From: Candidatus Bathyarchaeota archaeon
Lineage (GTDB): Archaea; Thermoproteota; Bathyarchaeia; 40CM-2-53-6; RBG-13-38-9
Assembly: GCA_963807605.1 (NCBI GenBank)
Contig: CAWECG010000001.1
Span: 352,001-416,000, forward strand
Direction: 5' to 3'
Length of the DNA stretch: 64,000 nucleotides
Positions 739 through 60,185 of the stretch are shown here, in pieces. The translations under genes were made by a program, and so were the position numbers. How positions within the stretch are numbered: position 1 is the stretch's first letter; every line of letters begins with the position of its first letter. The notes under the pieces were generated by a model that was not told where the DNA came from, searched no databases, and saw only the letters and a list, made by a program, of their open reading frames with translations.

Positions 739-842
739 ATGATGTCGTTACTCTGCCACAGATCCCTCCTCTCGTCTTCAGTTTTTTTGGTTCTGTTATT
801 CCCCACGCGGGTCGAGTGGTGCGCGCACTCACGAAACTATGC

Positions 843-931
843 GGTTCAAGTTGGGTGGGCCGCACCGTTGAGAACACACACAAAATTGTAACCCAGCAGT
901 TCAAATCCGGATGCTCTCACCAAGATGGCAC
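843..931 (+). repeat. Two tandem tRNA-3'-like sites (843-867, 898-922)
   Basis: GGTTCAAGTTGGGTGGGCCGCACCG; AGTTCAAATCCGGATGCTCTCACCA. Confidence 0.85.
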
Positions 932-1123
932 TGTAAGCGAAACGCACGGCTTCGGATGTCTTGCGTCCGAACATCACGTTAAGTTTTGAAAGGCCGAAGA
1001 AAAAGGAATCATTCTTGTCGATCAGGGTAAGATCGAGGCGGTCGGGGAGCGCCCCCGACAAGATCGAGCTCACTTCCAATCCGCCGAAACCCGCACCCAG
1101 GACAACCACGCGGAGCCCATCAT
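923..1123 (-). pseudogene. N-terminal fragment of an FAD-dependent sulfide:quinone oxidoreductase/NADH dehydrogenase-2-like protein
   Basis: VVVLGAGFGGL Rossmann motif and LTLIDKND; similarity stops at the CCA end of the repeat site. Confidence 0.7.
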
Positions 1124-1435
1124 GATTTATCTCCTTTTCAGGCAAGATTCTCTTAACCGTCAGGTAAGTCTGGGTTATGTTGCAAATAAGGGCTTCCAAT
1201 AGCGGTCGATGGCAGTCACATCCCGCTTAACGAATAGTTCTGTCACCGCCTTTAGTACCAGATCTCTGTTGTTCATTTGGATTTCCTCTAGTTCAACTAT
1301 TCGGCATGTTCCTGCTGGGTCTTACTTTGGCTTGTAGGCGGGTGTGAAGATGGCGTGGGTTGGGTAGATTTCTACTTGGGGGTCCCCTTGGATCCCGATC
1401 TGTTTCATGCCTGACATAAGTCTGGTCTTGACGAA

Positions 1436-1466
1436 GTCGTCGTCGCTCACCATCTATAGCACACAC
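1436..1466 (+). repeat. CTCACCA-core site with (GTC)n left arm and GCACACAC right arm
   Basis: GTCGTCGTCGCTCACCATCTATAGCACACAC. Confidence 0.75.
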
Positions 1467-1760
1467 GCATCCGAATCTTCTATAGACGTGAAACCTGAAA
1501 ATATTTAGAACCAAAGTGGATAATGCTGAGACGCGCGCGCGATGCGAAGAGGGCCTGATACGACGTAAGTGGTGGGACAATGATGCAATATAACGCACGC
1601 TCATAGTCATATCCTAGGTTACGCTAAATTTCGACTAGCACGCGAGTGACAGGATAGACCTGAGAAAGCGGCTGAGGCTCCAGCGCTCACTAAATTTAAA
1701 TCCAGAATAGTTGTATTATAAACACCTGCAACTGTAAGCCGCCTTAGGGGGATCCACAAA

Positions 1761-2120
1761 ATGGATAAAACGAAGCACGAACCCACAGAGAAAAAGCAAC
1801 CAGAAGCTACGCGCTTGGTAATATTCTTGCCGGGAATAGAGAGATCGACTGAGAAAACACTTCGAGTCGCCGCTGTGACCGACGAGGGAAAGATCGATAC
1901 TACCAGAGATGACACCGTGGAACTCTCAATAAACAATGAGGGTCGCATGCGCTTCAAGGACTCATCAAAAAATACGCAACTCAAATTGATTAATGGAGAA
2001 GCAAATGCGACGGTTATATCAGATCAGTCACATGGAGTCTCAATCTTCAAAGCCAGGTGGATAGGTGGGAAGACACCCCTTCAGCCAATACAAGTAACTT
2101 CTATCTATGTTCCTGGATGA
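1761..2120 (+). CDS. Hypothetical protein
   Basis: 119-aa ORF, TATA-like TTATAA upstream, (GC)4 run just downstream. Confidence 0.55.
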   Translation: MDKTKHEPTEKKQPEATRLVIFLPGIERSTEKTLRVAAVTDEGKIDTTRDDTVELSINNEGRMRFKDSSKNTQLKLINGEANATVISDQSHGVSIFKARWIGGKTPLQPIQVTSIYVPG

Positions 2121-2140
2121 GTATGTTTTGCAGCGCGCGC

Positions 2141-2320
2141 TTTACGTAATTTCACATGATCTTACACAAAAAGACACAACTTTACACACATAACCCAAAG
2201 AATTTTTTTTGTATTCAAAATTGTGTGTTTTTATGCGTTTTCACATAAAACTTTCCTTACCAATACTGTGAAATTATGTGTCCAATGTTGTAAAGTTATG
2301 TGGTTTTGCGTATTGTATAG
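2141..2320. repeat. 10-bp-phased repeat array with inverted halves around an A/T centre
   Basis: AC at 2144, 2154, 2164, 2174, 2184; centre CCAAAGAATTTTTTTT; TGTG units in right half. Confidence 0.6.
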
Positions 2321-2538
2321 GTGCTGTCTTACTGTGCCATGGTCATTACCGTGGACAACATCGAGAAGACGCTATTAGTGCCATGACTCCCTGTACTGTG
2401 TGAGCGCGCGCGAAATATTTCCAATGTGTATAGAGACCCTAATGATCATGCTAGCTTATCCATAGAATGTGTGCCCTAATGGTTGCCATTCATCATTAGA
2501 AACTGATAGTTAGAGTGATTCACGCCTGAAGATCTGAG

Positions 2539-2584
2539 GCGAGCTTTAGCGAGCAATATTGTGTGTGCGCACCACTAGACACAC
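2539..2584 (+). repeat. Degenerate S-module plus CTCACCA-family site
   Basis: GCGAGCTTTAGCGAGC..GTGTGTGCGCACCACTAGACACAC. Confidence 0.65.
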
Positions 2585-2662
2585 CTTCCTTGCCCCAGAA
2601 ACTAATACCTGCCTTACGCTATGGCAACTGTTAGATATCCTTGAACCGCAGAACAGCAGTTT

Positions 2663-3859
2663 ATGAAAACTCGATTTAAAGCGGTTCTAATAATTCTCTT
2701 CATCGTCACAGTACTATCAGCTCCAGTTAAAGCCCAAAACGTAAACCCATTGACTCCGTACGACATACGGGCCGCGTATGATGTGAACCCATTACTTCAA
2801 TCCGGCTACACTGGAAAAGGAGTAACCGTCGCCATTGTTGGCGAGAACATTGATGCAACCTACTATTCAGATGTGAACACGTTCAGCAGCAAATACGGAT
2901 TGCCACCCGCCAACATAAAGGCGGTCCAACCATACGCAGGCACAGGAACCGGTAAGACAGATGAAATAGCAGCGGATACGGAGTTTGTTCACGCAATGGC
3001 TCCTGACGCGAAAATTCTGCTTGTCCTAACTGGATCACAAAGCACTCTTAGGGGATTCTCCTACGTTATAGATCATAATGCTGCTGACATAGCGACGATG
3101 AGTTTTTACTGGTATTACTGGGGTAGTGGCGCTAGGGACACGGTTCAATCCTACAATCACGAATATGCCAACTCGGTTCGCAAGAAGATTACACTGATCT
3201 CCGTATCTGGTGACTTTGGATCTAACAATACTGTTCCTTGGGATCCTTCAGGAACTTGGAAAGGCGACTTCTGGGCGTCGCACCTGCCTAACGCGTATCT
3301 GATGCCTCAGTATAGTCCGTACGTCACGATTGTTGGAGGCACTGCTCTAACCTCACAGTCCAGTAATTATTCAGAAGTGGGGTGGAGTCAAAGCGGTGGA
3401 GGCCCAAGCAATCTATTTGCTGAACCAAGCTGGCAGAAGGGTCCCGGAGTTCCGCAGAACCACAGGCGCAATATTCCAGACATAGCGCTTGACGCATCAT
3501 CTAATACTCCCTATGCGTTCGATTGGAATGCAGATCAAGAGACTGAGTTCTGTGGGACTAGTGCGGCTGCACCAATATTCGCAGGGATTATGGCAGATAT
3601 TGATCAGGCTGCTGGAGGGCGAGTGGGCTTCCTGAATCCGCTACTATACTCGATTGCTTCAACAGACCCATCTGTATACCGTGATGTTACTTCAGGGTGT
3701 AGCTTAGTACAGGTAGGGTCTACCAATCAGACTGGATACTGTGCCCAGCCTGGTTGGGATTTCGTCACTGGCTGGGGAAGTATTGACGCATCTAAACTTG
3801 CGAGGCACCTTGCTCCGCACGCCAATATCTCTTACTTCTTGTCCCCAGTTCTTATCTAA
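2663..3859 (+). CDS. Secreted S53 (sedolisin/kumamolisin) family peptidase, C-terminus probably truncated
   Basis: Signal peptide, E-x3-D (EIAAD), SGD, GTSAAAP, GWDFVTGWGS. Confidence 0.9.
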   Translation: MKTRFKAVLIILFIVTVLSAPVKAQNVNPLTPYDIRAAYDVNPLLQSGYTGKGVTVAIVGENIDATYYSDVNTFSSKYGLPPANIKAVQPYAGTGTGKTDEIAADTEFVHAMAPDAKILLVLTGSQSTLRGFSYVIDHNAADIATMSFYWYYWGSGARDTVQSYNHEYANSVRKKITLISVSGDFGSNNTVPWDPSGTWKGDFWASHLPNAYLMPQYSPYVTIVGGTALTSQSSNYSEVGWSQSGGGPSNLFAEPSWQKGPGVPQNHRRNIPDIALDASSNTPYAFDWNADQETEFCGTSAAAPIFAGIMADIDQAAGGRVGFLNPLLYSIASTDPSVYRDVTSGCSLVQVGSTNQTGYCAQPGWDFVTGWGSIDASKLARHLAPHANISYFLSPVLI

Positions 3860-4177
3860 CCACTTACTAAACGGCGCATAGAGTTGCGATTCCTCCTCCA
3901 CAATTCCAAGATCCTTAGCTAGATATTCTTGCGGCGCAGTTGATGCTTGTTTTAGCCATATGCTTCCGCCACGGCCGCGTCCGGTCTCAATTAGATTCGC
4001 CTGTTGTAGTTCGTTTACAACTTCCCAGTAAACTTCTTCAGGCCACTTCTCGTTCATGTCTTCAAGGAGGTCACGCAAATGAATGTTCCCGATGTGACCA
4101 ATCGGCGCAACTTTCCTTAGAAGCTGAAGTAGTACCTCCCCATTCCTAGAGAGTTTCCGCTCTGGCTCCGCTGCCAA
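3820..4177 (-). pseudogene. Winged-helix-like N-terminal fragment of a probable restriction-related protein
   Basis: LIETGRGRGGSI and EEESQLY motifs; collides with the S53 gene at GCACGC 3817-3822. Confidence 0.45.
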
Positions 4178-4337
4178 GATGAGTCACCACGCGGTAATAC
4201 AATGCCCCATTTCTTAGGCTTTGCCCCACCGGACTAAAATGGAACTTGCCATGAAATTGAGCATACTCAATTCCACCCGGGAATTCACGGGAGCTCATAG
4301 AAAGTAGATCTCAAATGTCACCTTGGCACATTAGCTG

Positions 4338-5348: not shown

Positions 5349-5514
5349 ATCGGACACATTTGGTTCGATCAGAGCATGAATGATTACCACTAAACATGCC
5401 AGAGTTACGCATACCGAAGAGCTCTAGCAAACGTGTTTAATGAGTAGAAACAGTTTGGAGAATATTTTCGCTCCGTGATAGACAGAGCAATTCTATTATC
5501 TTCCCCTTTAAACA

Positions 5515-5900: not shown

Positions 5901-5922
5901 GTGGTGCTAACCGGCTAAGGTT

Positions 5923-6440: not shown

Positions 6441-6767
6441 TTAGCGCGCGCTAGAACGCACGCGTCTTCTTGGGATACTCTGGTATTCTCTAGACAATTT
6501 CCTTAACTGTCTTATGAGGCTGCCAACTTTCTTTTTTCTGAGTTTGTCTTTTCCAACTGTTTGTTGGACAATCTCTTGGAGGTTGTATTTGAGGAATTTA
6601 CTTATCGAGAGGGTGGGATTTTGTTCGACAAGTGCGTGGAGAGCGCTGTCAACTATGATGAATTTAGCGTCTTTTTTGAAAAGGGGATGCATGACTGAGT
6701 CGATCATCTTGTTTAGCTGGCCTTTCGAGTAAGTTCTACCTTGTGTTTCGTCAGCCAAGAGCAACAC
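6441..6767 (-). CDS. Hypothetical protein, C-terminus runs into a (GC)n run
   Basis: 108-aa ORF ending RVRSSAR* at 6444-6451. Confidence 0.4.
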   Translation of the reverse strand: MLLLADETQGRTYSKGQLNKMIDSVMHPLFKKDAKFIIVDSALHALVEQNPTLSISKFLKYNLQEIVQQTVGKDKLRKKKVGSLIRQLRKLSREYQSIPRRRVRSSAR

Positions 6768-6968: not shown

Positions 6969-7326
6969 GTGAGAGGTTATGCGCGCGCGTACGAAAACTA
7001 ATCTTCAACTTAAGAAAGAAGACGACCACAAATAGGCTAGCTACCGGCAGCTAAATCTAGAATAATGATAGGCGAATGGAGGGGCTTAGTGTGTGCTATT
7101 CTTACAGGCACGCTGAAGGTTTTGTATCCCGGCTGAGCAAGCAAGAAAGACTGCTGCAAGAAGAGAGGAGAGTCTAAGATCTTGCCCAATAGGGAATCTT
7201 TCTAATCGTATGACAGAAAGCGCTAAGTTTTGTCCTAAATTGGCAGAGCGATTTCGATAAAACTGTTAAAAACATTCAAGCCATCCGTTGAGGATCGACC
7301 GGCTGTTTCGATAGGTGGACAAGCTC

Positions 7327-7470: not shown

Positions 7471-7520
7471 ACCCAGTAACCGGATGAAATAAACGCTAAC
7501 CCCTCATCTCTCTCGCGCGC

Positions 7521-8646
7521 GAGCTTCTTGCAATATTATATTTTCTGTGTTAATTTTGTGAACTGGATTGGTGACCGCATTTTATCGATGTGTCCGTGCT
7601 TGATCGCGGATAAGGCAGTTGCCAGTAGAGCCAGCAGACAGAGAAGTACATGTGATATGACGTTTCTTAGGCCGCGTGTTCGAAGCTGAGACAATCCGAA
7701 GTGTGTCTTGAGTCTTGAGAATGTTCTCTCCACTGAGGATCGACGTTTATACAGTTGTTTCAGACGGGCAGGTCCGTGTGAGCGGAACTTCCGGTCGATT
7801 CGTAGAACCTGTTTGCCCTTCATCTGGTTTCTAGGGTAAGGTATGATTGGTTCTATGCCCATAGATCTTGCCTTGTCTCTGAAAGCTTCGCTGGAGTATT
7901 GTGAGTCTGCAGTCATGCTCTTCCACCTATGTTTCTTCTTCAATGCTTTATGGAGGAGGTGGGGTGCAACTTTTTTCTCATTTACATTTGCAGGTTCTAT
8001 GGTGACTGCCCGCGGCATCTCGCTGATGGTGTCTACAGCAAGGTGTATGCCGTAGCCTAAGATCACGTTTCTACCTTGTTTTCGTAATCTGGCTTCAGAA
8101 TCGGATAATCCACACTGGGTATTGTGAGGATCTCTTCGACTGTAAGCTTTGATGAATGTGACGTCTAACGCTAGGATTTCAGAGTCCAGAATGTCCATGT
8201 GGTCAAGCTGTTTGATCAGACGGTTCATGAGGCGGTGAAATCCTTGAGGGCCTATTCTACGTCGAAACCTCAGAAGTATTGATGGGTGATATGGATTCTC
8301 TGATTCCTTGATGTCGCAGAGTTTGCAGAGTTCACCGTCGCTCCATAGAAGTCGGTATAGTTCCTCGTAGCTTTCTATGTGTCTTAGCCGTTTGACAAGC
8401 TCTGCTTTGAACATTCCAAGTAAATTTCTATGGGGTCTGCCGACGCTGCTTCTTCTTCCATAGCTTCTTTCTAAGACTTGTTCTACAAACGTTAAATCCA
8501 AAGCCTGAAACAGATCATACAGAGCCTTACACTCGCTCACTTCTTTTTCACCAGAAACGGCATGAGTGGGTGTAAAGCTCATCGATCTTATGATCAAAAA
8601 CACGTATACATCTTCATGTTAAGCCCAAGAATATTGCAAGAGGCTA
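7521..8646 (-). mobile_element. Insertion sequence, IS5/IS1182-like, 1126 bp, copy 1
   Basis: Terminal inverted repeats AGCYTCTTGCAATATT; GCGCGC on both sides; same length and ends as 29542-30667. Confidence 0.92.
7536..8603 (-). CDS. DDE transposase (DUF772 + DDE_Tnp_1 type)
   Basis: ALDVT, ADSQY, YKRRSSVERTFSRLK motifs. Confidence 0.92.
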   Translation of the reverse strand: MFLIIRSMSFTPTHAVSGEKEVSECKALYDLFQALDLTFVEQVLERSYGRRSSVGRPHRNLLGMFKAELVKRLRHIESYEELYRLLWSDGELCKLCDIKESENPYHPSILLRFRRRIGPQGFHRLMNRLIKQLDHMDILDSEILALDVTFIKAYSRRDPHNTQCGLSDSEARLRKQGRNVILGYGIHLAVDTISEMPRAVTIEPANVNEKKVAPHLLHKALKKKHRWKSMTADSQYSSEAFRDKARSMGIEPIIPYPRNQMKGKQVLRIDRKFRSHGPARLKQLYKRRSSVERTFSRLKTHFGLSQLRTRGLRNVISHVLLCLLALLATALSAIKHGHIDKMRSPIQFTKLTQKI

Positions 8647-8688
8647 GCGCGCGATTACAGATATTTCATTGTGAAAATTGAATCCGCG

Positions 8689-9147
8689 CTAAACCGTCTC
8701 TTCACCAATTACTCTGGTCATTCCGATTTGTCTTGCTTTTCTTACTACTCGTAAGCGTCTCCACCAGTCACGCAGAAAGGTACCTTGATAATCGTATGCC
8801 TTAGCGCGCGCGTGGTCTATTCCTAGGCCACGGAATTCTGCTCGTAACTTCAGAACCGTGATAACCACCTTGAGGGCCTTGCCTCGAGCAGGCGTACCAA
8901 CCTTCTGCGCCTCATAGTTCATCCAGGCAGCGGTCAGAGCCTGATCAACCTGAAGCAGAACTTCCTCACGGACTGATGGTGTCGCAAGTGCGTGGCGGCG
9001 GGCTCGCTCAGCTTTGACCCAACGCTGGACCGTCTTTTCACTAACACCAAACCTCTCAGCTATCCTCGAGGACATCATCTTGAACAGGGCAAGATCGAAA
9101 GATTCCGCCTGCTTCGCTAGGTCAGTGCCCCACTTTGTTCTGGTCAT
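8689..9147 (-). CDS. HTH protein, possibly phage/plasmid-derived and chimeric
   Basis: SRIAERFGVSEKTVQRWVK helix-turn-helix; internal (GC)n run at 8804-8812. Confidence 0.55.
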   Translation of the reverse strand: MTRTKWGTDLAKQAESFDLALFKMMSSRIAERFGVSEKTVQRWVKAERARRHALATPSVREEVLLQVDQALTAAWMNYEAQKVGTPARGKALKVVITVLKLRAEFRGLGIDHARAKAYDYQGTFLRDWWRRLRVVRKARQIGMTRVIGEETV

Positions 9148-9994: not shown

Positions 9995-10831
9995 TCAGAT
10001 TCCTTTTAGGGCCAGGACTTCTTTGGCAGGTTTTCTATCTTTGTTGCAGCTGATCAATCGCGGAGCATCCAAGAAACGCAGTTCATATCCCAAGTCCTCG
10101 TAGAGTTTGCATATTCTTGGGGTTGCCTGATTGGAGAGTACAACCGGGCCGGAATGCTCTGTCAACCAATTTGCCAGGCGCACCTGATCGTCCCAGGAGA
10201 ACCCTTCCTTAGAGTACTGGGTAAATATCACATCATAAGGCGGATCCGCATACACAAAATCATCTCGAGAAAGTGAGACCTTCTCGAAATCTCCGGTTGT
10301 AAACTCCCATTCTTGGAAAACCCGTTTGTACGGGGTAAAGTCGTGTGCGTAGTTGATCTTTTGGTATCGACCAAAGGGAACATTAAATTCCCCTGACCGG
10401 TTAAACCGGCAAAGCCCATTATAGCAGGTCCTATTAAGATAATAGAATAACTCAGCCGCTTCTTTGCTGCTGGCTTTTCCAGTCTTTACAAGTTGATTGA
10501 ATCGTCTTCGATGCTGATAGTAGAGTTTTCTATTGTTAGCCAGGGGTATGTCTGTTACAAGGCCCTTCTTGAGCCTTTGAAAGAAGTTTATGGCGTGATT
10601 GTTGATGTCATTAAGAAGAGCCTGAGCAGGCATTAGGCCTAGAACAACAGCAAGACCCCCACACAGCGGCTCAACAAGCCTACGGTCTCTGTAAGGCTCC
10701 CAGATTGGTCTCAGATAAGGAACAAGCCATCTCTTTCCACCAGCCCACTTCAACGGGGGTCTAAGCGATACACTCTCGTAATGGGAACGGTGTGAGGTCT
10801 GGCTCAAGCTTGACTCCATTACGATTGACAC
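9995..10831 (-). CDS. Dam-family (D12 class) N6-adenine DNA methyltransferase, copy 1
   Basis: LKWAGGK, LVEPLCGG, YYLNRTCYNGL.R.N, ADPPY. Confidence 0.93.
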   Translation of the reverse strand: MSIVMESSLSQTSHRSHYESVSLRPPLKWAGGKRWLVPYLRPIWEPYRDRRLVEPLCGGLAVVLGLMPAQALLNDINNHAINFFQRLKKGLVTDIPLANNRKLYYQHRRRFNQLVKTGKASSKEAAELFYYLNRTCYNGLCRFNRSGEFNVPFGRYQKINYAHDFTPYKRVFQEWEFTTGDFEKVSLSRDDFVYADPPYDVIFTQYSKEGFSWDDQVRLANWLTEHSGPVVLSNQATPRICKLYEDLGYELRFLDAPRLISCNKDRKPAKEVLALKGI

Positions 10832-11543: not shown

Positions 11544-11732
11544 TTGTCAGAAGACAAGAAGAAAACTGGAAAGATAAGCAAGCGCGAGAATATCATTCAA
11601 CTCTTAAAGACTAACAAACTGTCAAATGCACAAATAGCTGCCATGCTTGGTACTGACGAGAAATATGTTTCTCAGGAGCGCGCGCTTCGTACCAGTCTCC
11701 GAATACGGAGAATCGAGTTCAATTCCGGGTAG
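11544..11732 (+). pseudogene. HTH protein N-terminus truncated at a (GC)4 run
   Basis: LSNAQIAAMLGTDEKYVSQ followed by GCGCGCGC 11678-11685. Confidence 0.55.
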
Positions 11733-12950: not shown

Positions 12951-13193
12951 TAGGGACGACGAATGCTAATAAGACCTTGGAGGCTGCTTTGACCAAGTGC
13001 GCGCACCGTGATACTAGAGGTAAGTAGAAGCGCGCGCTTACGTATGACATTTTTCAAATCTATTGCAACCTAGAACGTATGTTGTTTGCTTCCGTTCTAT
13101 GATTCATCAGGGTGAAGCGAACTCGGCGCTACACTCCGCGGGGAATCTATATTTGGAAGTAGGACTAGGGCTACCGTAGTTCAACTCGGGCTT

Positions 13194-13754: not shown

Positions 13755-14621
13755 ATGAAACATGTGGTTAAATTCCAAGTCTTAACTGAAAGGCAGGAGT
13801 CGAGATTGCGTCAAACCTTAGGTATAACTCGTTTCGACACTACTGTTTCACTTAGACCCCCGCTTAAATGGGCTGGTGGTAAGAGATGGCTTGTTCCTCA
13901 CCTCAGGCCAATTTGGGAACCTCATAGAAATCGTCGGCTCGTTGAACCTCTGTGCGGCGGGCTTGCTGTTACCTTGGGCTTGATGCCTACTAGCGCTCTT
14001 CTTAATGACATCAACAATCACGCCATAAACTTCTTTCAAAGGCTCAAGAAGGGACTTGTGATAACCGTTCCCATGGAGAATAATCAAAAACTCTACTATC
14101 AGCATCGAAAACGATTTAATGAGCTTATCAAGACTGGCAGAGCTAACAGTCAAGAATCTGCCGAGTTATTTTATTATCTTAATAGAACTTGTTACAATGG
14201 ACTATGTCGTTTCAACCGGTCTGGAGAATTTAACGTACCTTTTGGACGGTACAAGAAAATCAATTACGTACGCGATTTCACCCCCTATAAACAAGTTTTC
14301 AAGGAATGGCTGTTCACAACAGGAGATTTCGAGGATGTCTCTTTAGATCCGAATGATTTTGTGTACGCAGACCCACCTTACGATGTGGAATTCACCCAAT
14401 ACTCCAAAGAAGGATTCTCATGGGAGGACCAAGTGCGTCTGGCTAAGTGGCTCACAAAACATTCTGGCCCAGTTGTACTTTCCAATCAAGCCACTCAGAG
14501 GATATGTGGACTGTATGGTGAGTTGGGGTACAGCTTGCGTTTCTTGAACGCGCCTCGAATGATTAGTTGTAAGGGAGATAGAACTCCCGCTAGGGAAGTC
14601 TTGGCTCTGAGAGGTATTTGA
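13755..14621 (+). CDS. Dam-family N6-adenine DNA methyltransferase, copy 2
   Basis: Same motifs as 9995-10831; close paralogue. Confidence 0.93.
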   Translation: MKHVVKFQVLTERQESRLRQTLGITRFDTTVSLRPPLKWAGGKRWLVPHLRPIWEPHRNRRLVEPLCGGLAVTLGLMPTSALLNDINNHAINFFQRLKKGLVITVPMENNQKLYYQHRKRFNELIKTGRANSQESAELFYYLNRTCYNGLCRFNRSGEFNVPFGRYKKINYVRDFTPYKQVFKEWLFTTGDFEDVSLDPNDFVYADPPYDVEFTQYSKEGFSWEDQVRLAKWLTKHSGPVVLSNQATQRICGLYGELGYSLRFLNAPRMISCKGDRTPAREVLALRGI

Positions 14622-19379: not shown

Positions 19380-19875
19380 CCATATTTTGTATGTTGCAGT
19401 TTATTGTTTGTTACTTTCTATGCTGCTTACTGCCAGTTTTGTATTAGTTTTAATTGTTTTTTAGGTCAAGTTATGTCTTTCTTTATGTCTTTGTTTGTTT
19501 TGTTCTAAGTTGGTTTGTATTGTTTAGGTTCAAGTTTCCCAGCATGTTTGGTATTGTGGATTTTCCGGTTTTTCCATGTGTTGATTTAGGTTTGAAATAA
19601 GGCATTGTCTATTCCTGTATTGTATGGTAAACCAAAAACCCCGCAAACCATACATAACATAAACCACAGAAACCAGGAACCGGTAAACTTCCAACTATCA
19701 CTGCTATACCATGCTGCTGCTGGTATGTTCTGCGAGCGTAGCGAGCAGTTATTTTGGTGGTGGTGGTGGTGTGTCCCTTGGTGAGAGCATCGTGATTTGA
19801 ACCGTTAGAGCAGACTATTTTTTTGTGTGTGTGTGCCATAGCTGGTGAGCACCACCACCACCACCACCACCAAGG
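19380..19875 (+). repeat. Long non-coding element, fullest copy B
   Basis: T-rich arm, phased AAACCA arm, S-module 19732-19746, tRNA-like site 19779-19803 (-), second core 19843-19849, (ACC)7; homologous to 5515-5900 and inverted 42985-43093. Confidence 0.85.
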
Positions 19876-21034: not shown

Positions 21035-21117
21035 GCGAGCGTAGCGAGCCATTAGATTATGTTGTGTGTGTGTGTGTGTGTGTGTGTGTGCTCACCAAGG
21101 GACACGATGCGCGCGCG
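21035..21117 (+). repeat. S-module, (TG)14, CTCACCA-AGGGACAC site and (GC)n run
   Basis: Read directly from sequence. Confidence 0.9.
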
Positions 21118-23083: not shown

Positions 23084-23228
23084 TTGGACCAACGTGAGGA
23101 TTCGAACAGCGCGCGCTAGCCGTATTGGGCGCTGACGCCCGCGGGACAGAAGGAGTAGGCGTTCACCCTATGAAGAATATTCTTCTGAACCCTGACAGCG
23201 CGCGCTCACCCATTTTTATTCTCTATCT

Positions 23229-25606: not shown

Positions 25607-25870
25607 GAAATTAGTATTATGTTTTATCCCCAACATCTTTCAGTATGTTTAGGTCTTTGAAGTATACGTCAGCTGGGTAGAGATAACCTACCCCTTGGCG
25701 TGGTCGCTGGTAGTTCCAGTAGTTCACGAACTGTTGATGGGTCGGATACATCCAGGCTTCGTATTGGTAGGCTTTGGAAGGCTTCTATCTTTCCTATGGT
25801 TGATGGCGCGCGCGTAAAGACTATAATACGCGTCAAGGGCGAATCACAGCCACAAGGAAGTAAAAGCAAG

Positions 25871-26712
25871 ATGAACTGGAAAATCCATGTCTTGTATTTA
25901 GGAGAGCTAACCACTCCTAAAGGGCTTTTCACACCAGGCCTCGACGCGAACCTACTTCTTAAAGTGCCATACCTTGGATATCTACTAGTTTCCGGGTCGA
26001 GAAAGAATTCCTTGTGGACACCGGTATCAACTCGCGTTTCGTCATCGAAAAAGCATGGGCCGGAGCTCCTGCAAAAGGGGGAGAGAAATTTCTCCTCGAT
26101 GCATTGGAGAAAAATGTTGCCCGCACTGAAGAGATCGAGGCAGTAATCTACACTCATCTACACAACGATCATGCGGGGAACTGCCATCTCTTCCCTATGG
26201 CCCGACATGTTTTTCATTACGACGAATGGGGTGAATTAGTAGACCCACTTCCCTCGATGCGGATCCGAAAACTCTTCGACCCCGACGTCATTCCTGTTCT
26301 TCAAAAATCTCGCTGCCTCAAAATAACTGATGACGGCGAGTTTACAGAAGGTATTCGACTTTACCACACCCCCGGTCACACCATCGGGGGACTGACCGTA
26401 GCAGTGGATACTTCCAATGGGACATACATCATCCCCGGAGATATCGTGAATATCTATCAGAATCTCTTCCCCAAAATGTCGTGGATGTTAGATCTTCAAG
26501 CAAAACGCATCAAGACAACACCCGCTCCAGAACCTTACGGCCCATTAGGCGTCCCCTCTGGGCTTGTGTACGATCACTATGCATGGTATCGGAGTATCTG
26601 GAAAATCCGCGGTATGCTCAAAAGCCCAAAGCACCTGTTGCCCTGCCACGAACCCGCAATATCAGGCAAAACCTTCCCAGGCGATTCAATAGACCTCGAG
26701 ATTCCTGAATGA
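25871..26712 (+). pseudogene. MBL-fold hydrolase (AHL lactonase-like), frameshift near 26005
   Basis: MNWKIHVL..PYLGYLL then VDTG, THLHNDHAG, TPGHT. Confidence 0.8.
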
Positions 26713-26856
26713 GAGAAAACATAGGGAGCGCTGAATTAATCATCAACACGATCAGTTTCAAGATTCCATATCGTTTGAAGCCTGAAGATCTATGGTGCAT
26801 TTGAATTAGCTTCTGCGTGAGAGCAGCGCGCGCTACGCTAAGAAATAGTGGAATCA

Positions 26857-28185: not shown

Positions 28186-28472
28186 GGTTAATTTTCTTGT
28201 GATGCTGGAAAATAGCGCGCTCTACACCGGCCATTAAGATGGTTTTGAAGAAGCGAGGTCATCGGACTTACCCATACATGTTCTCGCTTCTCAGATTCTT
28301 AGCGCGTCGCTATGTTTTCATCGCCTTTAAGGGCTCAGGGCAAGCGTAAATCATGTCTTACAGATATTGTGTGAGTCAGCCCGCGCTGCACAAGGGATAA
28401 ATGATTGCGGGAACCTTTTGGATTTGACTAGAAAGCGCGCGTCGAGACCGTGACTTCGCTAATAGGAGGTTT

Positions 28473-29123
28473 GTGATGGAAGTTCTTGAGGCAATTAAAA
28501 AGAGAAGAACAATACGAGCGTTCACGAAAAGAGCTACCGAAGAGCAAGTGCGAAGGTTGCTACTTGCTGGTGTGCAAGCACCCTCCGGTTCGAATGTTCA
28601 GCCCTGGGAATTTATAATCATTGATGATCCCACGATTATTGAACAAATCGCGGAGGCTAAATATCAACAGACTCTAAAAATGGATATTGACGATGCGGTA
28701 CTCGAAAACCCGGCTGCCATTGAACAGATTCATCAGCAGTCTCTCAAGACTCCTCTTTCGCTAGTTAGAGCAACAAGACAGAAAAACGCTTATCAAAACT
28801 GTGCAGTGATCGCGGTCTGCAACAAAAAGGGGCACGGTATCGGACGAAAACCCTGGATGAATGTTGAGAATATAGCCAGCACGTGGATGTGCATCCAGAA
28901 TATCGCTTTGGCAGCAACCGCTGAGGGATTGGGTGTTCAGATTTCTATTCTTCGCGAGGAACACCAGATAGCCGTGGAAAAGCTCTTGGGCATCCCTGAT
29001 GACCACGAACTGGCCACTATGATAATGATAGGCGTGCCGGCAGGAATCCCCAACCGAAGAGAGTTTGGAGCGGATCGGCCGGAGTTTAGCTGGCTTCACC
29101 GGAATCGCTTCAGCACAGATTAA
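28473..29123 (+). CDS. Nitroreductase family protein
   Basis: RRTIRAF, APSGSNVQPW, QNIALAATAEGLG. Confidence 0.9.
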   Translation: MMEVLEAIKKRRTIRAFTKRATEEQVRRLLLAGVQAPSGSNVQPWEFIIIDDPTIIEQIAEAKYQQTLKMDIDDAVLENPAAIEQIHQQSLKTPLSLVRATRQKNAYQNCAVIAVCNKKGHGIGRKPWMNVENIASTWMCIQNIALAATAEGLGVQISILREEHQIAVEKLLGIPDDHELATMIMIGVPAGIPNRREFGADRPEFSWLHRNRFSTD

Positions 29124-29541
29124 AGTTTACCTGCGTCAATGGTTTAGGTGAAAATCTGACGGCATGCTTGACGCAGTATTTCTTAAGCTCTCTACCATTA
29201 AGCCTGTTTTCAAACCTGTTCAGCTTAACCCACAGGTGATTCAAAGTTTCAAGCCGGAAGTGCTTTCTTGAGAAATTCCAGATTTTCCCCCTAAACATCA
29301 TTTTCCTGTAGAACGCCCGGATCTCTGAAGTCTGCACTTCCAGCTCAGACCATCATGGATCCTTCCTCGAATAAGAAACAGAGAGGAGAATGAATGTCCA
29401 GAGAGGGAAAAGTGTACGTCTACTCTCAGCTGGCGGTTTGACGGTCAAAACTGCTGGATGCTAGGTGTTCAAGCGGCCATTCTTAGGGCATTTGCAAATC
29501 GAGGATGTCGGCGAGGTTGTAATGCCAACAAGTAAGCGCGC

Positions 29542-32096: not shown

Positions 32097-34179
32097 ATGA
32101 AAAAGACACTTGGTTTGTGGGGGCTTGCGGTGAACGCAATGGCGCTTATTGCGCCAGGTGCGTTCTTGTGGACGACGTTTCAGGTTCAAGCTGCGCAGAC
32201 TAATGGTGGTGTGACCACTGCGGGCGAGATGTGGACTGGCTTAGGAGCCGCACTTATACTTGCCTTCTTAACGGCATTTTCGTATTCGGAGCTCTCCAAC
32301 ATTTACCCAAGTGCAGGTACTGGGTCTTCTTACTTCTTTGCCGGGGCAGCGTTCTTGGATGGGAAGAAAGCGTCTCTTCGGCAGTGGGCGCGAATCGTAA
32401 AGTTCGTTGTGGGCTGGGTGTCGCACTTGTACTACTGGATCTACCCAGGCATCATGGTAGCCTTCTCAGCTACGTTAGTTGTGTACATCTTCGGCCTGTT
32501 CAACATTGTCTTGTTGGCGTGGCAGCAGATCGCGATAGCTGCGGTTTTTGCCTTAGTCAACGGGTACGTTGCCTATCGAGGCATGCACGGCTCCACTATG
32601 ACCGCTGTGGCGATTAACGTCATTCAGATCGTCTCGCTCGGGGCGTTCTCGATCCTCGCAATCTTGTACCGCCTGACACATCCGGGAGTGGCGTATGCGA
32701 CCTCTGTGAGCTCCATTCTCTTGCCACATAACTTCACGAACATTCTTTTCCAGTCCACGATAGCGATCCTGCTTCTCGTTGGGTTTGAGTCGGTGACCTC
32801 CTTCGGTGACGAGGCTGTGAACCCGAAGCGGCATATGAGAACGGCCGTCATCCTCTCACTTGCCATCCAAGGATTGTTCGCATACCTTTTCGAGTACTTT
32901 GCTGCGAACTACTTTGTTGGCAGTCAGCTGACTGCGACCGATGCAACTGGCAAAGTTGTTACGGGTTATGACGCGGCGGCGGCGTCTGGGGCGCCGATCG
33001 GGGACATGATACGCGTTATTGGGAATACGATGCTCGGCGGCACGGGGCAAGATTCTTACGTTGATTGTAGCGGCCACGGTTATGTTAGCTCTGGTCGGGA
33101 CGACGTTGGCCTGTTTGAATACGGCGGTGCGTGTCACTCACGCCATGGCTAAGGATCGGGAGATGCCAACAGTTCTCAGCCTTCTGCATGGCAAGTATGC
33201 GACACCTCACTGGGGCATCTGGACACTGGTTGCCGTGTCTGCTGTGATTGGGAGTTACGGCGTCTTGAGCGTGGATAACCTGACCCAAATCACCTTGGCC
33301 TCCAACACTGGCACGTTTCTGGTGTATGGAGCTACGAACCTGATTGCCTTGCTGGCTTTCTATGGGCGCGTGGGTTCCCGGTTCCTCCAACATAAACTAG
33401 TGCCCTTCCTTGGCTTGGTGGCGAATCTGTTCATGCTTGGGGCGCTGGTTTACTTGAGTTTCGTGGCGGGGGGTTCGACATCTACTGACACTGTGATAGC
33501 GCTGGCCATAGTGATTGTGTGGATCGTCGTTGGCGGTGTGTGGTTTGCCAGTAACACTCATGGATTTTGGCCGTTTCGTAAGAATGGTCATCCCCTGCTC
33601 ATGAATGGGGATGACCTACCCGCAACTCTCGCGTGTGGTTGTGACCGAGCGCAGGGATGCTTTTGCTTCCCGTTAAGGGAACTGGATGGTTTCACTGATA
33701 CAGTAAGTGACCTAACTAAGGACCACAAGCTGAGCAACGCACAAGTCCACCAGTTGATAGACAGAGCCCAGGCAGTACTGAACACGAGACGACCAACAAA
33801 GGGTAACTATGACGATGCTAAGGAACTATACACTCGGAGTCTAGAGGTTAGTAAGAAGCTTGGTGACCAGAAAGGAATAGCTGCAACACTGCACCAACTA
33901 GGCATGATAGAGCAGAAAAAGGGCAACTATGACGACGCGAAGAAGATCTATAACCGGAGCCTAGAGACTAGCCAGAAGCTTGGTGACCAGAAAGGAATAG
34001 CCATAACACTTCGTGTGCTTGGACGACTTGCTGAGGAACAAGGTGATCTAGATTCTGCCGAAAGATACTATCAAGAGGCACTTGCTTTTTTTGAGAAGCT
34101 GCAAGCTAAACCGTACCTAGAATTAGCAAAGAACGATCTGGATCGAGCTAAGTCAAAGAAAACAATTTGGCATCTATGA
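32097..34179 (+). pseudogene. APC-family amino acid permease, frameshift near 33045, second frame fused to TPR repeats
   Basis: LIAPGAF, SYSEL...PSAG, VGFES; tail has DQKGIA.TL..LG repeats. Confidence 0.75.
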
Positions 34180-45074: not shown

Positions 45075-45150
45075 CTGTTTTTTTGACGTGAACATCCACA
45101 TAGACATTTCTAGGAAGAAATTGGGTTTAGCGCGCGCAAAAACAGATGCT

Positions 45151-47681: not shown

Positions 47682-48106
47682 AAGAGTGTAAAATTTGTCT
47701 AAAGAACCACGCACGTAACTGGTCAAGAGAAATTCACGCGCTCAATCTAGGAGCAAGCCATACCCTTGTCTAGGAGCTTTCAAGCAACAGCATTCCCAAT
47801 TGAATATCGATGTTTCAACCATAGGCGTCTTTCGCGTGGAAGTATGTAGTACCGGGCCCTCTCTCCAGATCCTTCACGTTGAACCATGCATTCAAAGCCC
47901 CTTAACGTCAAACCTATCGTTTTATTCGACGCGCTCGAATACGTGTCACCGAACGCCTCGAGACACTTTCTTACATCATGTATCTTGAACGGTTGCTTTA
48001 CTAGCGCGCGCTTGTTGGTTTTCGTGCGGGGTCTGTCGTTGGAAGTCTTTCGGAACAAACTGGTTCGGTGGCCCTGTGAGTTCAATCAAATCCCCTGCGA
48101 GTCCCG

Positions 48107-49408: not shown

Positions 49409-49465
49409 TCATGCTCGCCTCCCCTAACGGCTAGGGCGGGTACATGCTCACTGTGTAGCGCGCGT

Positions 49466-50935: not shown

Positions 50936-51206
50936 ACGCGCGCGCTTCTCCCTTCAACGCCTTCTTCTTGATCTTTGTGATATCTCGTGCCAGTGTGTAT
51001 TCACCGAGGGCTTTGATCCATTTTTCAAAATCATCCCTATTCATATGGAATTTGATGGATCTGATATCCACCTCGGCAAGGATTTTATAGAAGCTTTGTA
51101 GATCGGCGGCCAACTTGTCTGCGTAGACACCTACATCGGTGTAGAAGTAGAAAGGATTTGGAGTCGCAGTAGCAGCCTGAAGAGTTTCGCTTCTGTACAA
51201 GCTCAT
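50934..51206 (-). pseudogene. DUF5752-like protein truncated at a (GC)n run
   Basis: FYFYT..G, SIKFHM.R.DFEKWI; ends GEARA*. Confidence 0.65.
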
Positions 51207-54799: not shown

Positions 54800-55444
54800 T
54801 CCTCTTCAAGATGAAAGTTGATCCACTACGGTATTCTCTCTCATGATATTTGAGTCGTTTGTATAAGGTTAGAAATGCATTCATCGGTAGTCATGCTTCT
54901 TAGTGCACTAATGCAAATTGTGATAGCTCGTTTCGCTTCTCAACGATAGTAGTATGCCCTCTCCATGAGTGGATTCATGGGGGTTACGGAGGTTCTGACC
55001 TTCGATTCCATGGTGAGAGAGGCTTTATGAAGTCCCTGATTATTATTCATACATTCGTGCGCCGAAAAAATTCACTATCTGCCAAGAACTTGCTTGTAGG
55101 CCGAAATGCAATATGAGTGAATGTTGTGTAAAATGCCCTAAATGCGGCGAGAACAAACTCATCTTAGATCATCTGCATGGGTATTTTAAATGTAAGAATT
55201 GCGGGTACAAGGAAGTTCGGGAGAGAGGCTGAAGAGAGCTCATTCCGCGGTGTGACAGACCAGTTAAGCGTCTCAGAGACGGCCTGTATCTAAAACATAG
55301 ATAATGTTGTGTACATCGCACATGCAGGTCGGGCGACATACCGTTGCCAACATCTCGATGATAAGAAAGCTTAGTGCTCGCTGCACGTTTGCACGGAAAG
55401 TGAGCGCACGCCAGAAAATCAGAGCGCGCGCGTATTCTCTATTT

Positions 55445-56485: not shown

Positions 56486-56596
56486 GCGCGCGCTAGCCTC
56501 CAGATTTGAACCGTTAGAGGAGAGTGTGTGTGCTCACCAGCTAATGCACATACACATGCCCCTTGGTGAGCGACGACGACGTTCACCAAGGGATAC
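56486..56596. repeat. Cluster: (GC)4 run, truncated tRNA-like site and three CACCA cores in alternating orientation
   Basis: Cores near 56533(+), 56564(-), 56583(+). Confidence 0.88.
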
Positions 56597-56657
56597 TTCT
56601 TTTTCTTGCTCAGCATCTATTCACATGGATAAAAGATTCGCTAAATGGAGAACATAA

Positions 56658-57011
56658 ATGAACAACTTTCCAAATTTCATGAAAAACCCGAAGAATGCCA
56701 TAGATCCATCTTCGCAAAGCAAAGGGGTGAAAGGTTACATTTACGATGGAGCTGACGGTGGCCAAATGACCTTTTGGGAATGTCATATTGATGGCAAATC
56801 TCATGAGCATGTCCACAATTTTGATGAGTACTTTGTGATTGTGCAGGGGCAATATACGCTGATACTAAATAGTCAGAAAATCCTATTGAAAACTGGTGAC
56901 GAATACTTCATACCGATGGGAATAAAACATGCCGGTGAATTCACATCTGGAACCAAAACAATACATGCTTTTGGTGGAAGGCGTGCAGAAAGAGCGGCGA
57001 CGGACAGATAA
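56658..57011 (+). CDS. Cupin domain protein
   Basis: HEHVHNFDEY..G, IP.GIKH. Confidence 0.88.
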   Translation: MNNFPNFMKNPKNAIDPSSQSKGVKGYIYDGADGGQMTFWECHIDGKSHEHVHNFDEYFVIVQGQYTLILNSQKILLKTGDEYFIPMGIKHAGEFTSGTKTIHAFGGRRAERAATDR

Positions 57012-57129
57012 CCTCGTGACTACCCGATGCTATCCAGCATAAAGCGTGCGCTGCCCATAATTATGGCTCGCTTAGCGAGCAGAGAAAAAAGAAAAGCGCC
57101 GGTGTATCTGTCTTTTGATCCAGGGCATG

Positions 57130-57528
57130 TTACTTCTTATAGAGTGTTGAGAGCACGTATCCATATGGGATCCACATGAAGAATCCTCCGTAGATGAGCC
57201 CAACCGCTATATTGGTTGCGTTGGTTGCCATGCCAACGAGGACGACGTAGGAACCGGCTGCGATGTCTTTGACGAGCCAGATCATCAGGCCGAAGTAGAG
57301 GCCTTTCATGACGCCTTTCCCAGGAATCCCATCATAGAACCTTTGGTAGAACATGCTGAATATTGCGCCCCAGATTATTGTGAGGACGATCATCACTAGA
57401 ACAAAAGTTGAGGTCGAACCTGGAGCGGCTGTCATGAGCCCTGATGAAACGCCTATGAACGCAAAAATGCTTCCCACTATGCCACCGACAAGTCCTGCAA
57501 TAGCACCCGCCGCAATAACGCTTTTCAA
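57130..57528 (-). CDS. Four-TM membrane protein
   Basis: Hydrophobic segments; GAGGTGA SD before TTG. Confidence 0.7.
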   Translation of the reverse strand: MKSVIAAGAIAGLVGGIVGSIFAFIGVSSGLMTAAPGSTSTFVLVMIVLTIIWGAIFSMFYQRFYDGIPGKGVMKGLYFGLMIWLVKDIAAGSYVVLVGMATNATNIAVGLIYGGFFMWIPYGYVLSTLYKK

Positions 57529-57639
57529 ATACTCACCTCCTATCTCGTGGATCGGTAAAAAAAGTCTTTAGATCAAGTCCGTGTCAAATAGATTTAACAC
57601 TTGTCAAAAGCGGTTCTGTAGAGTCTTCATCGTCGTTCA

Positions 57640-57710
57640 TGTCCCTTGGTGAGCACACACAAAACCCACTCTAACGGTTCAAATTTGGGTGCTCTCACGA
57701 GCTAGGACAA
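57640..57710. repeat. Divergent pair of sites (core 57647-57653 on -, tRNA-like 57676-57700 on +)
   Basis: Read directly from sequence. Confidence 0.88.
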
Positions 57711-57773
57711 ATCATAACTACTAGCAAGAAATGTTTGAAATAGTGGGCCGGTAAGGCCTGAGCTCCGAGGTGG

Positions 57774-58575
57774 TTGTTTTCAATGCCGAAAGTGGGGGTG
57801 AATGATATTCAGATTTACTATGAAGTGCATGGTGAAGGCTTTCCATTAATAATGATTCACGGGTTAGGTGCAAACACAGACTGGTGGGAGCGCTGGGTTA
57901 CAGAACTCTCCAAGAAATTCATGACAGTAATCTTCGACAACAGGGGGGCTGGACGCACCGACGTATCTGACAGAAGATACACCATCAGACTGTTTGCTGA
58001 TGACACAGCGGGTTTGATGGATAACTTGGGAATTTCTAGGGCTCACGTGCTTGGACTTTCAATGGGTGGAATGATAGCACAAGAGCTGGTGCTCAACTAC
58101 CCCCAGAAAGTCGAAAAGCTCGTCCTCTGCTCCACCAACTGTGGAGGTAGAAAGAGGGTTCCACCATCTAAGGATGTGATGGGAAGGCTCATGGCTGACA
58201 GAAGCACTTTGTCTGAGAAAGAAAAAGCCAAAATGGATTCCAACGAAAGTCTAACCGAAGATTTCGCCAAAAAGAACCCTGACTTAGTAGAGCGCATGGT
58301 AGCAACAGATCCTTAAGGCTCCAATTTCAGACGAAGCCTACAAGCGACAACTGAATGCAATAATGGAATTCGACACCTATGATAGGCTACCTCAGATTAA
58401 GGCCCCCACTCTGATATTAGCAGGTAAACAGGATATCCTCATGCCTCCTGGGAACGGTTCAATCTTGGCTGAAGCCATACCCAATGCTAAGCTTGTCTAT
58501 CTTGAAAAGTCAGCCCACGGTCTTCAAGAAGAAATGGATGAAGTAATCAACTCTGTAACAGGTTTCCTTGGCTAA
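57774..58575 (+). pseudogene. Alpha/beta hydrolase, frameshift near 58300
   Basis: HGLG, DNRGAGRT, GLSMGG; next frame PTLILAG.QD..AHG. Confidence 0.82.
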
Positions 58576-58692
58576 CCTTTGCACTATCGCACATATGATA
58601 TGGAACTCTGATGTAAACCAAGCATTAAGTCTCGCCAGTTACCGCCTGAACTCTTTTTGCCATAAGAGTTGATTGAACTCTTGAAAAGGTTA

Positions 58693-58738
58693 GCGCGCGT
58701 TTTTTTTGTGTGTGCTCACCAGCTGGGTCACACACACA
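58693..58738 (+). repeat. (GC)n run plus CTCACCA site
   Basis: GTGTGTGCTCACCAGCTGGGTCACACACAC. Confidence 0.85.
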
Positions 58739-58855
58739 AGCAAGGACGGATTCCAGGTTGACCGGCTAATTCTCAGGGATCCCTCCCTTCACTTGTCAAG
58801 TTATGAAAGCCCATATATTGTCAACCCGTTATAATTATGAGTTGGCGGAAAGAAA

Positions 58856-59149
58856 ATGCCTCACTACATTGTCTTGGTGAAACTAACTGAGAAGGGAAGA
58901 CAAAACTTCAAGCAGGGATGGATGAAGGACAGGCCGCAAGTAAAAGCGCAGGTTCAGAAGATGGGTGGAAAAATGACAGGATACATGACGTTCGGTCAAT
59001 ACGACAGTGTGGAGCTTCTAGAACTACCGGACGACAAAGCTGCTGCGCGATTCGCAATGATGGCCGGAGCAACTGGCCTGATAAGAACCGTGACTCTCAA
59101 AGCCTTCTCAGAAGACGAAGTTGACAAGATGGTCCAGGAAATTCTTTAG
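58856..59149 (+). CDS. GYD domain protein
   Basis: MP.YIVL.KLT..G, TFGQYD, TLKAF. Confidence 0.85.
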   Translation: MPHYIVLVKLTEKGRQNFKQGWMKDRPQVKAQVQKMGGKMTGYMTFGQYDSVELLELPDDKAAARFAMMAGATGLIRTVTLKAFSEDEVDKMVQEIL

Positions 59150-59199
59150 ATTCCTGACCATCTCGTTTCCTTTTTTTATCGCCTCAGCCGTCTGGCTTT

Positions 59200-59318
59200 T
59201 GTGTGTGTGCCCTAGCTGGTGAGAGCACCGTAATTTGAACCGGCAGATTCTTTGTGTGTGTGCTCACCAAGGGACAGGGGATATGGATAACTGGGTGGTT
59301 TTGGTTTCCACGTAGATG
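59200..59318. repeat. Divergent pair of sites (tRNA-like 59217-59241 on -, core 59263-59269 on +) plus extension
   Basis: Read directly from sequence. Confidence 0.9.
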
Positions 59319-59420
59319 TTAGATAAGGCTAGGTGGGATTGTCTAGCCGATTTTGTTCTTCAGGGTTTTCTGTTGATGTTCAGTTTTAACTTATATTAGC
59401 TTTCTTTTCAAGATATGTTG

Positions 59421-59996
59421 TTAATAGCTATTAATTTTTTGACTTATTAGTGAACTTATTAGTTTGGCAGTGTCGCTTTCTATTCTTTCTAGATCCGCGT
59501 CGTTAGGTCGGCCTCTTATGTCTCCCAGTCTGCCTTTTGTACTGAACTCTTCAGATCCATGAAATTCACCTATGACATACCATTCTGCTTTTACGTTGAA
59601 TCCGATATGTTCAAAGACTTGGCGCATGATTTTGCCGGCGGGGGTAGCTTCATCTATTCCAGTATGAACGCCTGAGTAAGTACAGAATATGATCGCATTT
59701 TTGCCCGGAACCTTGGGAGCGGACAGCTTAACGTATCCCTTACTCCGATAATGCATCAACTTTCGCTTGAGGAAATCCATCATAGGAGGAGCCGGCAACC
59801 TTTCATACGGAGGTGCACCGATACAGACTAGGTCATAATTGAAAAAGTCTTCTTGTTCCGCTTCATCAACCTTCTCAACAATGGGTGTTACTCCCGTCTT
59901 TCTCATACCCTTCGATATAGCTTCCTTAACCTTCTCCGTGTTTCCAGTTTTCGACCAATAAATAATCAAAGCTTTGAATTGTTCTATTTCTTTCAT
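59421..59996 (-). CDS. Flavodoxin-like protein
   Basis: YWSKTGNTEKV, IGAP, FCTYSG. Confidence 0.85.
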   Translation of the reverse strand: MKEIEQFKALIIYWSKTGNTEKVKEAISKGMRKTGVTPIVEKVDEAEQEDFFNYDLVCIGAPPYERLPAPPMMDFLKRKLMHYRSKGYVKLSAPKVPGKNAIIFCTYSGVHTGIDEATPAGKIMRQVFEHIGFNVKAEWYVIGEFHGSEEFSTKGRLGDIRGRPNDADLERIESDTAKLISSLISQKINSY

Positions 59997-60185
59997 GATT
60001 ATCGTCGCTAATGTCTTTACTCCTTCTATTTATAGAATAGGGCATTCAAATCAATTCTGACTTATAACAAGTCACATCATCGATCTGACGAATTCATAAG
60101 GTGTGTATTACTGTTATTGTTTTCCATCTCATGCCTTGCTTACTTTTCTGAAGGCAACTATGTCTTGGCTTCTTGAAGAGCGCGC

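Follow-up and report, generated by a model that had tools for sequence, protein, structure and literature searches.

Self-complementary linkers at gene junctions of a bathyarchaeal genome and a candidate RNA-templated primase of the PriS fold

A 64,000-nt stretch of a Candidatus Bathyarchaeota archaeon genome (assembly GCA_963807605.1, contig CAWECG010000001.1, positions 352,001 to 416,000; hereafter the window) raises the question of where the short alternating GC runs scattered along its mosaic of gene fragments come from. A preliminary description had listed 19 perfect runs of 8 bp or more and offered three possible origins: the footprints of a transposon, an end-joining process in which broken ends receive self-complementary tails, or a recombination hotspot prone to adopt Z-DNA. 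All 19 runs were found exactly where they had been placed, and the comparisons described below indicate that they are linkers written anew at DNA junctions, probably by a primase of the PriS fold that copies a small RNA encoded next to its own gene. A first-order Markov model predicts 0.58 such loci in the window, in keeping with the earlier estimate of less than one, which had assumed a GC content of about 44% (46% as measured). Genome-wide, the GC 8-mer is 17-fold more abundant than expected from an order-3 model, with 320 runs of at least 8 bp grouped in islands of the 2.65-Mb genome and a length distribution that peaks at 8 (n = 198; length 7, n = 127). Most frequent among the forms is A(GC)4T, with 106 copies; next come those in which the run is entered as A-C. 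An A indeed stands beside 30 of the 38 half-sites of the window runs, as had been noticed. The same A(GC)4T 10-mer occurs 16-119 times in 9 of 15 genomes of the family and 0-5 times in the remaining 6, and its abundance in independent genomes argues that the signature is not an assembly artefact.

The runs mostly avoid genes, since open reading frames (ORFs) of at least 200 residues cover 60% of the genome and contain just 10 of the 320 runs. The claim that no long run lies inside a recognisable intact gene holds in this sense, with the reservation that the run at 8804 falls within a 152-residue ORF with a weak helix-turn-helix (HTH) match. The degenerate runs also pointed out earlier are words with one mismatch, about 3-fold enriched across the genome, which is consistent with decayed scars. 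As for the proposed coincidence of runs with gene truncations, it was confirmed at 50937, where a DUF5752 fragment is fused to residues 225-462 of an ABC-type paralogue with 96% identity (the label "ABC" being that of the preliminary description itself), and no parent was matched for the flanks at 3817, 11678, 13549, 43091 and 60180, where truncations had likewise been claimed. When flanks were aligned to homologues, a paralogue without the run was found for 70 of the 83 informative flanks, so the runs are mostly non-parental. Both flanks could be placed for 15 runs, 9 of which link different parents (one of them an insertion-sequence flank), 4 the same parent and 2 are copies of one older junction; the four same-parent cases are repairs with deletions of 6, 6, 17 and 252 nt. 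Some linkers have been inherited through later duplications and are decaying. The gene spacing across three linkers is identical in a separate short-read assembly.

The candidate enzyme is encoded by an intact gene elsewhere in this genome (contig C3, C3:72234-73127), with a product of about 270 residues. Its AlphaFold model (pLDDT 87) retrieved archaeal PriS as top Foldseek matches (E 6e-11, TM 0.55), and residues D96 and D98 (the DxD of motif I), H154 (the His of motif II) and D205 (the Asp of motif III) are invariant in 47 homologues. By this predicted fold and its catalytic motifs, the enzyme is a PriS-like member of the archaeo-eukaryotic primase superfamily. It is not the replicative PriS: it scores 49 bits against a curated cut-off of 143.5, the true PriS is found at C3:1004488, and the gene is not universal and single-copy. 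Its distribution is patchy (9 of the 401 genomes of the phylum), with at least 132 homologues whose named records are mostly from Bathyarchaeia, and no gene neighbours are conserved around the loci. A second short paralogue of PriS (C3:316905-317681) was also considered and rejected, as it is conserved across the order, linker-free genomes included, and has no RNA motif. In most loci a conserved pyrimidine-rich motif precedes a TATA-like box, some 100 nt before the start of the enzyme gene; it is specific to this module, does not occur before other genes of this genome and is not a regulon site there. Another observation concerns a relative, G013, in which 5 kb of contig C13 hold four N-terminal fragments of the enzyme gene, some of them bordered by linkers.

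In nearly all loci, an element of about 100 nt overlaps or directly follows the 3′ end of the enzyme gene. This RNA element has three helices, two of which cross to form a pseudoknot beside a presumptive template, and 16 of its 18 helix pairs show two-sided compensatory changes, as compared to 0 of 500 shuffles in a control that ignores relatedness. Slid controls agree, with 41-55% of positions paired versus 90% for the helices of the RNA. The element contains two CUGA/GAUGA motif pairs, which resemble kink-turns and presumably make it a putative binding site for L7Ae; no match was found in Rfam. The two motif pairs enclose a single strand of variable sequence, after which comes an A-rich stretch. 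It is in this strand that the template would reside, at one fixed position in about 80 loci (several of them from related samples), always before the A-rich stretch, shorter than the linker and matching just one half of it, and with a sequence that permits realignment by 1-2 bases.

In support of such a role, templates and linkers covary. The top word beside TAGCT templates is (AGCT)n, and the corresponding words are (GATC)n for GCGATC, A(GC)nT for GCGCT, T(GC)nA for CGCAT and A(CG)nT for CGCGT. Thirteen (AGCT)n words lie in 19 kb beside TAGCT templates versus 4 in 206 kb, and eleven (GATC)n words in 28 kb beside GCGATC templates versus 5 in 206 kb. The base at which the run is entered also tracks the template (A|G in 71 of 148, T|G in 20 of 32 and A|C in 8 of 16). 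On the scale of whole genomes, (GATC)3 occurs 81 times in the genome with the GCGATC template and 0-1 times in each of four others, and T(GC)4A 21 times in the CGCAT genome and once in the present one. In a quick tree search, the GCGATC enzymes were nested within the GCGCT clade, about 0.1 changes per site apart, and therefore the change of linker follows the RNA and not a distant protein. The (GATC)n runs behave as the GC runs do, since only 7 of 84 lie in long ORFs (56% coverage) in 400 kb of the GCGATC genome picked for containing hits, and they are absent from the paralogues found. Predictions fixed beforehand for another class were also borne out, with 118, 88 and 70 linker copies in three GCGCT genomes versus 18 in a GGGCT genome. 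All the well-supported products (GC, GATC, AGCT and ATGC repeats) are self-complementary. Finally, the A beside the run is frequently non-parental as well, and in such cases the last parental base is a T in 16 of 22 flanks, compared to 12 of 35 flanks with a parental A (p = 0.007), a bias expected at the primer end because pairing to the template predicts a T before a non-parental A.

The window itself carries one copy of the RNA, linked to a broken copy of the enzyme gene (Table 1). Linkers entered as A|G, which match the template of this copy, are the dominant form, accounting for 23 of the 38 half-sites of the window and for 331 of the 640 counted genome-wide. The template of the intact C3 gene predicts A-CGCG tails instead, which is the minor linker, and within 20 kb of that gene the A|C form is enriched (19:13 versus 153:318, p = 0.003). 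Five genomes have a dominant linker that agrees with the RNA of a broken gene and not with that of the intact one. In one genome (G001), GCGCT-type RNAs are located away from the intact gene, and in three others the RNA of the intact ORF is degenerate, an intact GCGCT RNA being retained by frameshifted copies. These cases suggest that RNAs of broken genes are used in trans, and they also fit a former resident that is now broken; the window copy is the most likely source of the dominant linker, whether by acting in trans or at a time when its gene was still unbroken. A short GAUG..CUGA hairpin was also noticed in the 5′ leader of both copies (window 29338-29360, and C3 upstream of 73127), possibly a kink-loop for autoregulation.

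Altogether, of the three origins first proposed, end joining through added self-complementary tails is the one supported, now with a candidate enzyme and an RNA template. In the mechanism that we propose, the PriS-fold polymerase would work with the pseudoknotted RNA of about 100 nt that its own gene carries at the 3′ end. An exposed 3′ terminus of DNA would base-pair through 1-3 bases to the A-rich stretch or to the U next to the template, and the enzyme would then copy 4-6 template bases and realign, with 1-3 rounds in all, to give tails of the type A-GCGCGC. The self-complementarity of the repeat would allow any pair of such ends to anneal, and fill-in and ligation by host enzymes would yield A(GC)4T. 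Breaks would thus be repaired with small deletions, and foreign or displaced fragments would be stitched in to build up mosaic islands.

Table 1. Linkers and associated features of the window, in window coordinates.
Position	Strand	Feature	Evidence
1532..1541	.	Linker replacing 6 nt of one parent (small deletion)	Both flanks match C3:584894-584900, ~90%
2133..2140	.	Linker	Left-flank paralogue (97%) without run
2404..2412	.	Linker	Left-flank paralogue without run
6444..6451	.	Linker; adjoining T also non-parental	Right-flank paralogue, 97%
6981..6989	.	Linker at gene truncation	Homologue aligns residues 1-38 of 122 up to run
7514..7521	.	Linker interrupted by IS A; second half at 8647-8653	Flank comparison
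7521..8646	-	IS5-like element A in linker (secondary parasite)	DDE_Tnp_1; flanks of all copies
8804..8812	.	Linker in short HTH-like ORF; parent not found	Sequence
11678..11685	.	Linker; parent not found	Sequence, homologue search
13030..13037	.	Linker; parent not found; 6-mer 31 nt upstream	Sequence
21109..21117	.	Linker; weak paralogue evidence	Paralogue comparison
23109..23116	.	Linker; left edge of 81-nt piece between two linkers	Gene spacing same in separate short-read assembly
23198..23205	.	Linker; right edge of the 81-nt piece	Separate short-read assembly
25806..25814	.	Linker between two unrelated parents (C3:54684, C1:578637)	Left edge of 1-kb captured segment
26826..26833	.	Linker; right edge of 1-kb segment (25815-26825)	Segment 93% identical to C1:578634-579643
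28246..28345	-	Template RNA gene, ~100-nt pseudoknot; two CUGA/GAUGA motifs and three helices intact	Covariance model, 55 bits, E 8e-12
28296..28306	-	Putative single-stranded template CGCGCU and primer-pairing AAGAA; predicts T-T-A-GCGCG tails	Sequence
28435..28441	.	7-nt linker, RNA side of nitroreductase segment	Sequence
28473..29123	+	Nitroreductase gene in place of catalytic core of broken enzyme	Pfam; position between fragment and RNA
29155..29405	-	5′ leader and first ~61 codons of broken PriS-like enzyme gene	74% identity to P0008 residues 1-61 by tblastn; 248 nt aligned to intact C3 copy at 71% nucleotide identity
29542..30667	+	Second IS A copy, identical, also within GC run	Sequence comparison, flanks
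45130..45137	.	Linker shared with 89%-identical paralogue; predates duplication	Paralogue comparison
48004..48011	.	Linker	Right-flank paralogue (91%) without run
49458..49464	.	Probable linker, 7-nt run	Sequence
50937..50945	.	Linker; DUF5752 fragment fused to C-terminal half of another gene; flanking T non-parental	Parent alignments
55424..55432	.	Linker; right parent is window 23217 onward, no run there	Paralogue comparison
56486..56493	.	Linker at gene truncation; flanking T non-parental	Homologue and paralogue comparison
58693..58699	.	Probable linker, 7-nt run	Sequence

Several results weigh against this interpretation. The word predicted for a genome with a GGGCT template was not specifically enriched there, nor were two later candidate words, a sister genome contributing, anecdotally, one stretch in which a repeat is followed by 12 bases of the complement of the GGGCT template. 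The CGGCCGT genome has just 3 matching words, and the sole GCGCTGCGCT locus has none. Genomes also hold linkers of other classes, such as 40 copies of A(GC)4T in the GCGATC genome. Moreover, in four relatives with 16-44 linkers neither the enzyme gene nor the RNA was found, and four more have only fragments of the gene, all eight in incomplete assemblies; gene-negative relatives rich in linkers require that the gene was lost, that already-joined DNA was imported or that the assemblies have gaps. Some junctions, like the end of the enzyme-gene fragment at 29155, have no linker at all, and linker writing would be one joining route among several.

Among the alternatives, the one that fares best keeps the same chemistry and changes its purpose. 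The enzyme and its RNA could serve to tail mobile or invading linear DNA, either for end maintenance or for defence, chromosomal linkers being mere by-products. The patchy and mobile distribution of the module, its variable gene surroundings, the concentration of linkers in islands and the use of repeat synthesis in defence by DRT10 speak for such a role. Nonetheless we consider it rather unlikely, given that some junctions are same-parent repairs with deletions of 6, 6, 17 and 252 nt, that self-complementary repeats fit joining and not capping, and that searches for the enzyme found no close homologue in viral contigs (one distant match only) and no match in PADLOC. A scan of genome contigs with the single protein also gave no match.

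Two further alternatives, both very improbable in our view, concern the part played by the RNA. In the first, causation is reversed: the linkers stem from some other process, and the RNA's variable loop is just one more scarred site that resembles the linkers around it. The module does sit in linker-rich islands, one RNA copy bears a (TGCA)n expansion, and linker-rich genomes without the enzyme gene exist, as said above. A scar, however, would hardly occupy the same position in some 80 loci, always next to the A-rich stretch and matching only half of a linker longer than itself, nor would it predict the flanking base and the primer bias. In the second, the same enzyme acts by protein-determined or untemplated terminal transfer, and the RNA is a regulatory element co-inherited with enzyme variants. 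The replicative archaeal PriSL has terminal-transfer and strand-annealing activities and mediates end joining (PMC12019639), and the template classes do group on the protein tree. Against this, the switch from (GC)n to (GATC)n separates closely similar proteins and matches the template letter for letter, and in five genomes it is the RNA of a broken gene, not that of the intact one, that agrees with the dominant linker.

That the runs are transposon footprints, or arose through an integrase whose every insertion duplicates a GC target, is largely refuted and extremely unlikely. Two IS5-like insertion sequence (IS) families, with about 17 copies, are centred in GC runs with a short duplication, copies of IS A and IS B are GC-flanked on both sides, and many segments lie between two linkers. 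But these copies, inserted into pre-existing runs, explain about 17 sites in comparison with 320 runs, whose flanks are otherwise unique; same-parent junctions show deletion without duplication; the covariation with templates would go unexplained; and the distribution of the IS A transposase departs from that of the signature, as it was not found in three genera rich in linkers (g3, g4 and g7) and abounds in a genome that has few of them. Both families (the window copies of IS A and, as an example of location elsewhere, G000:C1:531285-532388) target linker centres almost exclusively, family B nearly always in the TA-flanked form, and relatives in linker-poor genomes also occupy GC-rich targets; these elements resemble parasites that have adapted to scars as a safe, non-coding place to insert. 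That the runs reflect a hotspot already present and prone to Z-DNA, or an artefact of assembly or amplification, has a negligible probability, with runs that are absent from the parents, appear in many independently assembled genomes, are inherited and decay, and keep their gene spacing in a separate short-read assembly, and with (GATC)n, which does not alternate purines and pyrimidines, behaving alike in another genome.

Other candidate causes were also examined. The occurrence of Ku does not track linkers, and within the family only this genome has it; its Ku gene (G000:C1:590294-592231), accompanied by a LigD-type polymerase and ligase fragment, was not detected in any other family member searched. 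Searches by motif for reverse transcriptase, PolX, PolY and nucleotidyltransferases returned regular-expression candidates only. Dispersed hairpin-like sites with a CTCACCA core (window 1446, 16201, 19832, 23984, 28141, 48168, 56533, 58715, 59206, 60410, 60470 and others) show no correlation with linker density (rho 0.15, p 0.08) and are present in linker-free genomes. Their arms appear swappable, being (TG)n, (GTC)n, (GTG)n or similar to a tRNA T-arm, and the sites occur in island-bearing relatives; a separate cassette or mobile system could use them for recombination. A 15-nt motif repeated at 19732, 21035, 42985 and 60379, usually adjoining these hairpins, resembles the single-strand origin boxes of rolling-circle plasmids. 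Elsewhere in the window, two Dam-type adenine methyltransferase genes (9995-10831 and 13755-14621), 77% identical, face each other across queC and adjoin a DUF6996/6997/7226 gene, with which they may form a DNA-modification or defence island. An ORF (33019-34179) that fuses the C-terminus of an amino-acid permease to TPR repeats lies in a block poor in linkers, which also holds a P-type ATPase and an ammonium transporter.

Taken as a whole, we lean towards a telomerase-like ribonucleoprotein built on a primase fold, with exchangeable template RNAs that include those of broken genes, as a programmable system for end joining and gene capture in archaea. No description of such a system was found in the literature searched, paywalled papers lying outside its scope. 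If real, it would mean that telomerase-type repeat addition was invented independently on a different polymerase fold. Archaea, which to our knowledge mostly have no Ku, would also gain a way to repair breaks and to capture fragments, and the mosaic islands seen in abundant sediment archaea would be accounted for. As each linker would record the active template, transfers would become traceable, and an enzyme of about 270 residues that, together with a 100-nt RNA, appends a short sequence of choice to DNA ends could be a tool.

Compared with known systems, the GC linkers differ from IS footprints, which are recognised by a target duplication, the same parent on both sides and a tracking transposase. 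The HIP1 element of cyanobacteria is an abundant short palindrome spread through coding DNA. The linkers are likewise abundant short palindromes, but they avoid genes and are newly written at junctions. Non-homologous end joining by Ku and LigD also adds bases at breaks through a primase-superfamily polymerase, although its additions are short and of no fixed sequence, and Ku does not follow the linkers here. HIP1 is, in addition, tied to a methylation site (PMC6604393). The PriSL of Saccharolobus islandicus carries out microhomology end joining through terminal transfer and annealing (PMC12019639), which offers a precedent for an archaeal primase fold serving in break repair. PriSL is, however, the replicative primase acting on existing microhomology, with no RNA partner and no fixed insert, whereas the enzyme described here is a distinct paralogue of patchy occurrence that scores below the PriS cut-offs and would add a programmed sequence. 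In DRT10, a three-part, protein-primed reverse-transcriptase system that makes long free cDNA for phage defence, a tandem repeat is programmed by a non-coding RNA whose template loop varies and which shows an A-B-A′ pattern of realignment, and parallels with telomerase were drawn in the same work (bioRxiv 10.1101/2025.10.16.682844). The variable-loop RNA that would program a tandem repeat is common to both, but the present system has no reverse-transcriptase fold, no conserved partner gene and no PADLOC match, DNA ends appear to act as primers, and the product is fixed in the genome. Telomerase, made of TERT and the telomerase RNA, uses an internal template beside a pseudoknot, short primer pairing and repeat addition by realignment. 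The likeness extends to an enzyme-associated RNA whose internal template dictates the repeat, as judged by covariation in which one blind case failed, and to a pseudoknot next to that template whose crossing helices show compensatory changes; DNA-primed, RNA-dependent synthesis would be a further likeness, for which the primer bias gives indirect support. On the other hand, the catalyst here would be a primase fold without a reverse-transcriptase (TERT) domain, and its 1-3 rounds of self-complementary repeats would be laid down inside junctions and not at chromosome ends.

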